Origin: a virus
Direction: 5' to 3' (one strand)
UHGV virus genome: UHGV-0240017
DNA: 64,000 nucleotides
Numbering within the stretch: position 1 is the stretch's first letter; each line of letters opens with the position of its first letter. Position numbers and translations under genes: made by a program. The notes below the pieces were generated by a model. It searched no databases, was not told where the DNA came from, and saw nothing but the letters and a program-made list of their open reading frames with translations. Of this stretch, positions 10,953-10,977 are shown piece after piece.

Positions 10953-10977
10953 TCACCTAGGTAATATATATCTGAAA
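10953..10977 (-). promoter_or_regulatory. phage promoter-like element (minus-strand reading TTTCAGATATATATTACCTAGGTGA)
   Basis: 24 of 25 nt identical to 19208..19232; contains TATATTAC, which I recall as the phiKZ early-promoter core; about 50 nt upstream of the lipoprotein ATG. Confidence 0.5.

Follow-up and report, generated by a model that had tools for sequence, protein, structure and literature searches.

In the window, by which we mean the whole 64,000-nucleotide stretch of the viral genome UHGV-0240017 that was analysed, one sequence is repeated exactly ahead of two minus-strand genes, and the question that this locus raises is what kind of signal the repeat is and which polymerase would read it. 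An earlier note, made from the sequence alone, had proposed a 24-nt element carrying the early-promoter core of phiKZ-like phages. When we searched the window, we found that the 25-mer TCACCTAGGTAATATATATCTGAAA is present in two exact copies, at 10953-10977 and 19208-19232, precisely where the note had placed them; a third copy was absent from the window at up to three mismatches, and none appeared in 100 shuffles. The shared element itself is real, but its length had been understated: the string quoted as 24 nt actually has 25, and exact identity extends over 27 nt (10951-10977 and 19206-19232), with approximately 4.5e-7 such pairs expected by chance. Read on the minus strand, which is the coding strand here, the 27-nt repeat is TTTCAGATATATATTACCTAGGTGAGA. 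The proximal end of copy 1 lies 49 nt from the ATG at 10904 and that of copy 2 lies 53 nt from the ATG at 19155, both inside the 45-60 nt upstream of minus-strand starts that had been proposed. The centre of the element is a near-palindromic inverted repeat (TTACCTAGGTGA). The window is strongly depleted in CTAG, with 37 occurrences as compared to the 83 that trinucleotide counts predict and the 245 that base composition predicts, and CCTAGG is found within both consensus copies and nowhere else in the window.

To define the family to which the repeat belongs, we listed all ATATTAY occurrences in the window, obtained seven aligned minus-strand sites, and built a matrix from these. When the window was scanned with this matrix, eight sites scored between 21 and 51 bits and the next best position scored 2.8 bits. 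The seven founding sites were picked by eye and their scores are partly circular; the eighth site, which the matrix recovered with the core ATTTTAT at 51643, and the sites from other genomes are independent of the matrix building. All eight sites are on the minus strand, which carries approximately 85% of the window's coding sequence, and seven of them are intergenic, with intergenic DNA making up 7.3% of the window (P = 8.6e-8). Unbiased 7-mer enrichment in intergenic DNA, which has no power for eight sites, was dominated by terminator T-runs and ribosome-binding sites. A G is found at a fixed spot, 6 nt after ATATTAY, in all eight sites; the core is ATATATTAC in both exact copies, ATATTAT in five others, and ATTTTAT in one; and TTTCAG occupies positions –23 to –18, with GATTAAAAAAGA-like tracts further upstream. 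The two exact copies are the best-matching form of the eight-site family. Among the variants that the note had listed, those near 4073, 46447 (approximately 15 nt off), 60064, and 60143 are members, the one at 21945 is a GGTTATATAACC palindrome and is not, and the members with cores at 51643 and 50232 had been overlooked. The GGTTATATAACC palindrome, at approximately 21945-21956, lies just upstream of an internal head protein gene (20658..21929) and might represent another promoter class.

The phiKZ core named in the note, TATATTAC, is correct: it is the phiKZ early consensus in PMC7058600 (Table 2), and in the first 100 kb of the phiKZ genome it stands before gp5, gp6, gp31, gp36, gp54, gp58.1, gp68, and gp76, with the site at 51715, ATTTCAGATTTATATTACTAAGGTG, being nearly identical to the window element. 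The same table gives the early consensus of 201phi2-1 (TTTRARR_BTATATTACDWHDGTG), OBP (TTTYARRYAKATATTATYWWADTG), and N1M2 (TTTCARRYAKATATTATYWAAGTGWA) (PMC7058600 Table 2), and the AR9 early promoter is AAATATATATTAT-(6N)-G+1 (PMC5312081). Compared base by base, the window element fits the phiKZ, 201phi2-1, OBP, N1M2, and AR9 consensus as well as real phiKZ sites, and the proposed check against published phiKZ-family motifs thus agrees with the note. The phiKZ early promoters are characterised by an extended –10 element and, upstream of –19, by a T-rich block (PMC8244752), and a T-rich block together with an A/T-rich –30 region has been described as an early-promoter feature (PMC8244752, PMC11512511); 32 phiKZ sites are read by the virion RNA polymerase according to Ceyssens 2014, as relayed by PMC10914365, PMC8244752, and PMC7598289. 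The window and phiKZ share TATATTAC centred near –10, TTT(C/A)A(G/A) upstream of –19, and TG approximately 6–7 nt after the core, and in both the sites are intergenic, co-oriented with genes, and found before the chimallin gene (gp54 in phiKZ, its probable counterpart in the window) and before non-virion polymerase genes (gp68 in phiKZ). In contrast to phiKZ, the window's most frequent form is fixed over 25–27 nt and is identical across genera, and the window group has a second, commoner subclass with GATAGATATTATC.

The likeness extends to AR9, in which 11 of 13 core positions are identical by our own base-by-base comparison (AGATATATATTAC in the window, AAATATATATTAT in AR9), the spacing to the G start is 6 nt, and an injected multisubunit polymerase is the reader, as we infer for the window; AR9 differs in being a Bacillus phage with uracil-containing DNA and in its upstream and start-site sequences. 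The predicted promoters of OBP, N1M2, and 201phi2-1 have an extended consensus, TTTCARRYAKATATTATYWAAGTG, that matches the window family almost position by position, and the number of sites is 31 in N1M2 as compared to approximately 22 in SPN3US (PMC7058600, PMC11512511); these phages belong to other genera with other hosts, and only the SPN3US-like group has the C-ending core ATATTAC plus CCTAGGTGAGA. In phiKZ and phiR1-37, transcription starts 6 nt downstream of the consensus (PMC5312081). By the AR9/phiKZ spacing rule (PMC5312081) and the G located 6 nt after ATATTAC, the start site of copy 1 is predicted at the G at 10954 and that of copy 2 at the G at 19209, which gives predicted 5' UTRs of 50 nt and 54 nt. 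Copy 1 (10951..10977, minus strand) is thus a predicted exact-consensus early-promoter element, based on its exactness and family membership, that spans approximately –23 to +4, with the whole promoter including the A-rich –35 region extending to approximately 10989, and copy 2 (19206..19232, minus strand) is predicted to be its equivalent, with the whole promoter extending to approximately 19244. A predicted AR9 early promoter with a single consensus mismatch is inactive (PMC5312081), and therefore the weaker window sites with cores at 50232 and 51643 may not fire.

By megablast and tblastn, the nearest relatives of the window are SPN3US-like and Erwinia jumbo phages, none of them close: a 12-kb query aligned over 11% of its length at approximately 74% DNA identity, protein identity is approximately 45–53%, and the window mirrors the SPN3US gene order from approximately 15 to 80 kb. 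Judged by these comparisons, the window is from an SPN3US/Asesino-like jumbo phage. The closest of the IMG/VR loci compared, UViG_3300029126_000001, shares approximately 45% of 50-mers exactly, and none is identical. At the level of homology, the window encodes a major head protein, internal head proteins, DNA polymerase pieces, helicases, DHFR, and four split RNA-polymerase genes. Three of these resemble phiKZ gp55 (56585..58084, E = 5e-32), gp71 (44194..46431, E = 4e-29), and gp74 (42095..44194, E = 3e-32), all of them subunits of the phiKZ non-virion polymerase, whose structure has been solved. The remaining gene, 34833..36152, encodes a protein with 74% identity to SPN3US gp42, a virion component by mass spectrometry that has been assigned as the polymerase beta' middle subunit (PMC5105663). 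With three non-virion subunit homologues and a gp42-like virion subunit, both enzymes of the phiKZ scheme are therefore encoded, in agreement with the note's suggestion that this phage brings its own RNA polymerase. The gp55-like gene, which encodes the N-terminal part of the non-virion beta' subunit, is interrupted by a group I intron at 56415-56732 (minus strand; Rfam RF00028, 56.9 bits, full-length match). Exon 1 ends in ...RISDRVIKA, and the reading frame has changed when the sequence restarts at (Q)DFDGDQ, immediately ahead of the catalytic DFDGD motif; the gene is also split in phiKZ (gp55/gp56.1) but is continuous in SPN3US.

For each of the eight window sites, SPN3US has a site in the equivalent position, including a tandem pair, which is also present in Asesino, and an intragenic site. 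The exact 25-mer is present at 17 IMG/VR loci before diverse genes, with two copies in SPN3US, two in ChrisDB, four in Caitlin, and one in Huxley, plus four metagenomic contigs, and thus reaches at least four named phages in two genera. In a comparison of the window with SPN3US, identity is 1.00 over the element and 0.60–0.70 over the flanking 100 nt, leaders, and coding starts, as compared to a shuffled baseline of 0.59. The intragenic site (50219-50254) has its SPN3US counterpart at 25232, and the codons GAT AGA TAT TAT are found in both phages. AGA makes up 5.7% of arginine codons in the window, and the retention of this rare codon in both phages suggests that an internal promoter is under selection at the level of the DNA.

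The motif match, the intergenic placement, the co-orientation, and the positional conservation across genera all support, computationally, the early-promoter reading of the earlier note, and we think it very probable that the element is the consensus (best-matching) form of the phiKZ-type early promoter of an SPN3US/Asesino-like jumbo phage, read by the injected virion polymerase. A multisubunit virion RNA polymerase would enter the cell with the DNA and would then read four promoter features, namely the A-rich sequence near –30, TTTCAG at approximately –23 to –18, the ATATATATTAC core at approximately –17 to –7, and CTAGGT-G(+1)AGA, and would start on the minus strand at G 10954 (copy 1) or 19209 (copy 2). 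The same sequences could also be a host sigma-70 promoter, with TATATT as the –10 element, the upstream A-tract as an UP element, and the host RNA polymerase recruited after injection: the core TATATT matches TATAAT at five of six positions, an A-rich tract lies at approximately –30 to –40, and some phiKZ-related phages (RSL2, RSF1) are rifampicin-sensitive (PMC5312081). We consider a host promoter unlikely. None of the sites from a sigma-70 consensus scan overlaps with 10951-10989 or 19206-19244, and a –35 hexamer matching at four or more of six positions is absent; TTTCAG, CCTAGGT, and G+1AGA, which sigma-70 does not read, are invariant across genera; and the element differs very little from the phiKZ and AR9 promoters, which were shown to be independent of the host polymerase (PMC10914365, PMC5312081). 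Given the –10-like TATATT in the core, weak use by the host polymerase is possible. In the literature searched, we found no transcript 5' ends or timing for SPN3US-group phages, no demonstration that the group grows without host RNA polymerase, and no paper containing the sequence string of the element.

The genes that follow the sites are those expected of a promoter for the virion polymerase. The six weaker sites head operons with probable chimallin, non-virion polymerase, and replication or nucleotide-metabolism genes, and all three non-virion polymerase subunit genes are within motif-headed operons, as the phiKZ model predicts; the motif is not found directly upstream of the virion-polymerase gene 34833..36152. 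The tandem pair consists of a predicted distal promoter of the ATATTAT type (60141..60176, minus strand, core 60154) and a predicted proximal promoter (60061..60096, minus strand, core 60074) with a 5' UTR of 45 nt, and it precedes the gene for a 615-aa protein (58169..60016), followed by the gp55-like subunit gene. The 615-aa protein is the orthologue of SPN3US ACQ60_gp244 (RefSeq tag), which has been reported as a diverged chimallin homologue by Laughlin et al. (PMC9365700), and the phiKZ gp54-gp55 gene order is kept in the window. There is no PDB sequence match and BLASTP against phiKZ gp54 was not significant (E = 0.25); the protein is a probable chimallin on the basis of PMC9365700, the gp54-gp55 synteny, and protein size. 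In phiKZ, gp54 has two start sites, one primary and one secondary (PMC8244752). Tandem motifs approximately 80–93 nt apart before the probable chimallin gene are present in the window, SPN3US, and Asesino.

The four other weaker sites in the window are also placed ahead of genes. One (46455..46490, minus strand, core 46468) lies directly before the non-virion RNA polymerase beta/beta' genes 44194..46431 and 42095..44194, the ATTTTAT-type member (51630..51665, minus strand) lies after a terminator and before gene 49971..51599, and the intragenic, weaker member (50219..50254, minus strand) lies within the 3' end of that same gene, 279 nt before gene 48234..49940. The last (4068..4103, minus strand) lies after the major-capsid-gene terminator and before a 16-codon ORF and gene 2965..3975. 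This ORF (3985-4035, minus strand; MEKIQFKLKICVIIKI) has a good ribosome-binding site and is located between the promoter and the gene; at the equivalent SPN3US promoter there is a similar short ORF start and a second promoter nearer the gene. When we scanned the complete SPN3US genome with the matrix, we found approximately 22 sites, essentially all on the plus strand, and none before virion-polymerase, capsid, sheath, or terminase genes. In 201phi2-1, some non-virion polymerase genes are without early promoters (PMC11512511), and therefore the gene context is suggestive and not diagnostic.

This context also bears on the possibility that the element is a promoter for the non-virion phage polymerase, of the middle or late class, which we regard as quite improbable. 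Both polymerases are phage-encoded, and both focal units are embedded among head genes, whose expression is normally late and which make an odd neighbourhood for early genes. The motif, however, heads the operons of that polymerase itself, an enzyme that cannot first transcribe its own genes; the known motifs of non-virion polymerases are different, being TATG in phiKZ and AACA-6N-TA/G in AR9 (PMC7598289); and, as in the complete-genome scan above, the motif is absent before the capsid, sheath, terminase, and virion-polymerase genes of SPN3US. The promoter type that we favour, one read by the virion polymerase, is already known from phiKZ-like phages, and according to a review a motif of this kind can be found bioinformatically in every RNAP-encoding jumbo phage (PMC7598289); the exact 25–27-mer across genera and the leader hairpin described below are modest new details.

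If the two exact copies are early promoters for the virion polymerase, each would drive a short, terminator-insulated early unit with a single gene, as each copy stands with one gene between terminators. The copy 1 unit (minus strand) consists of an upstream terminator at 11135-11108, the promoter at 10989-10954, the gene at 10904-10761, and a downstream terminator at 10753-10738. The upstream hairpin (11108..11135) is the terminator of the preceding internal-head-protein gene, is usable both ways, and insulates copy 1 against transcription from upstream, and the downstream intrinsic terminator (10738..10753) closes the unit. The copy 2 unit (minus strand) has the same layout, with an upstream terminator at 19292-19262, the promoter at 19244-19209, the gene at 19155-18514, and a downstream terminator at 18508-18487; here the strong terminator of the upstream internal-head-protein gene (19262..19292), with a 14-bp stem, lies immediately before copy 2, and an intrinsic terminator (18487..18508) closes the unit.

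The copy 1 gene (10761..10904, minus strand) encodes a predicted 47-aa small membrane or secreted protein of phrog_8574, with a basic N-terminus, a hydrophobic stretch, and an invariant C-terminal C-x10-C-TGRG, and the family is kept at the same locus across the SPN3US-like group. The earlier note had called this gene a stand-alone lipoprotein cassette. Using a PROSITE-style lipobox pattern, with a Cys after the hydrophobic stretch, we found the lipobox-like cysteine in the window (VVLGC) and in ChrisDB (ALAC) and not in SPN3US, Huxley, Stratton, or pEa_SNUABM_29, so the lipoprotein label is partly right; the family is better regarded as one of small anchored or secreted peptides, with lipidation possible in some lineages. 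The cassette, likewise, is a terminator-bracketed single gene in the window, but this layout is specific to the lineage, as some relatives have other small genes between the promoter and the 47-aa gene or a unit that runs on downstream. The copy 2 gene (18514..19155, minus strand) encodes a fast-evolving 213-aa protein that is the positional orthologue of SPN3US gp55, with 30% identity over 88 N-terminal residues. This fast-evolving gene lies under a perfectly conserved predicted promoter. Neither the 213-aa nor the 47-aa protein could be given a function with Pfam, PHROGs, or PADLOC, and the 213-aa protein has no family in any of the three.

Downstream of the exact copies, the predicted transcripts begin with a hairpin. 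In copy 1, the start of the predicted 5' UTR (10936..10954, minus strand; GAGAGTTTACGTAATACTC) forms a weak 5' hairpin of –2.7 kcal/mol, and in copy 2, the predicted transcript has a 5' hairpin from +1 (19191..19209, minus strand; GAGATTAC-aca-GTAATCTC) of –8.2 kcal/mol. We analysed such leaders by per-sequence folding, an arm-swap permutation, and a comparison of sense with antisense. Among 18 distinct exact-consensus leaders, 13 have a hairpin of at least –3 kcal/mol starting at +1 to +3, and the leaders fold better than their shuffles (mean z –2.27, p = 1e-4); in ATATTAT-type leaders there is little hairpin signal (mean z –0.72). The arms co-vary, with pairs such as GAGATTAC/GTAATCTC, GAGAGT/ACTCTC, and GATAGA/TCTATC, and when 5' arms are exchanged among leaders, the mean energy rises to –3.1 kcal/mol, as compared to –5.5 kcal/mol with the native arms (permutation p = 0.0005). 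Folding is also more favourable on the sense than on the antisense strand, with a difference of –1.34 kcal/mol (p = 6e-4), and the sense strand uses 14 G-U pairs. The sense-strand bias and the G-U pairs indicate RNA structure, in a transcript that starts where predicted. MAFFT with RNAalifold gave no consensus structure on the leaders because loop and stem lengths vary. In phiKZ, one of seven leaders in the first 100 kb has a 5' hairpin (gp54, strong), and the co-varying hairpin at the start of consensus-class transcripts is thus a further feature of the window group unlike phiKZ.

The hairpin also helps to dismiss the idea that the repeat is not primarily a promoter and owes its identity to recombination or to a bound protein (with the ACCTAGGT palindrome serving as an operator, or the element being a PeSL-like shuffling site or a mobile element end), which we hold to be very improbable: the centre TTACCTAGGTGA is near-palindromic, the element is exactly identical across genomes even where its flanks have diverged to random level, and it stands before unrelated genes, but it is always oriented with the downstream gene at a fixed distance to the ribosome-binding site, its positions are shared by the window and SPN3US with no mobility seen at that distance, and the sense-specific downstream hairpin with G-U pairs points to RNA and not DNA. 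An operator on the palindrome was rejected, as other family members are without the palindrome. Mobile PeSL-like cassettes were rejected at this evolutionary distance, as both copies precede the same two positional orthologues in SPN3US. The T4-type PeSL cassettes that Arbiol, Comeau and Krisch reportedly described in 2010 consist of an early promoter and a stem-loop flanking small ORFs. They resemble the window units in having a terminator, early promoter, stem-loop, and small ORF and in being single-gene units among unrelated genes; they reportedly differ in having host sigma-70 promoters and in being shuffling cassettes, whereas the window promoters are of the phage-polymerase type.

With the element taken as a virion-polymerase promoter, consensus-class transcripts would typically open with a +1 hairpin, which in copy 2 is strong and in copy 1 weak. 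5'-terminal stem-loops of E. coli mRNAs are the general background to the idea of 5'-end protection, and the role of the hairpin is most plausibly to protect the 5' end from decay, by analogy with these. A tentative extension, which we think possible and rather doubtful, is that the exact-consensus sites are a separate module, made up of a promoter of approximately 27 nt and a co-varying 5' hairpin and usually insulated by terminators, that marks a distinct immediate-early class in SPN3US-like nucleus-forming phages, with the hairpin having a specific function. In such a module, the hairpin would shield the first phage mRNAs from host 5'-end-dependent decay or, alternatively, would serve a step peculiar to transcription by the injected polymerase. 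We found no description of such a hairpin-bearing immediate-early class for phiKZ-like phages in the literature searched. In phage N4, the polymerase recognises the hairpin itself, a DNA structure that precedes the start site. In contrast, the window hairpin follows +1 and behaves like RNA folded from the sense strand. The N4 virion-polymerase promoters (PMC4496689) are like the window in that a hairpin is tied to the promoter and the polymerase enters the cell together with the DNA.

Read as early promoters, these sites provide a testable early-transcription map for this phage that can be extended to SPN3US, Asesino, ChrisDB, Caitlin, and Huxley, for none of which was a published promoter found in the literature searched. 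They also suggest that the promoter specificity of the injected polymerase is almost unchanged from phiKZ to enterobacterial phages with proteins that are 10–50% identical. The two small, insulated, predicted early genes are candidates for host-takeover or exclusion functions, and the fixed 27-nt promoter with its 5' hairpin leader could be a compact part for phage engineering or phage-polymerase-dependent expression.

Around the promoters and leaders there are further conserved sequences. Between the upstream terminator and copy 1 (10994-11048), we found a cluster of short repeats which, on the minus strand, consists of GCGTTAGAAT, GCGTTTTAGA, and GCGTTCTAGA in tandem and an inverted TACCCTCTAGAA / TTTTAAAGGGTA pair. 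The CCYTCTARA upstream motif is not enriched in the window (1 found, 1.03 expected). At the same locus in SPN3US (L023 1238-1345), ChrisDB, Caitlin, and a metagenomic relative, there are CCCTCTAAA-type direct and inverted copies, and the cluster may be a binding array for a regulator. In SPN3US leaders, a box, AATCGAC(T/C)AT(T/C)A, is found a few nucleotides upstream of AAGGAG in many genes (e.g. 65458, 94283, 223321), some of them behind early promoters and others not; in the window the box is found only in loose form, and it may enhance translation initiation.
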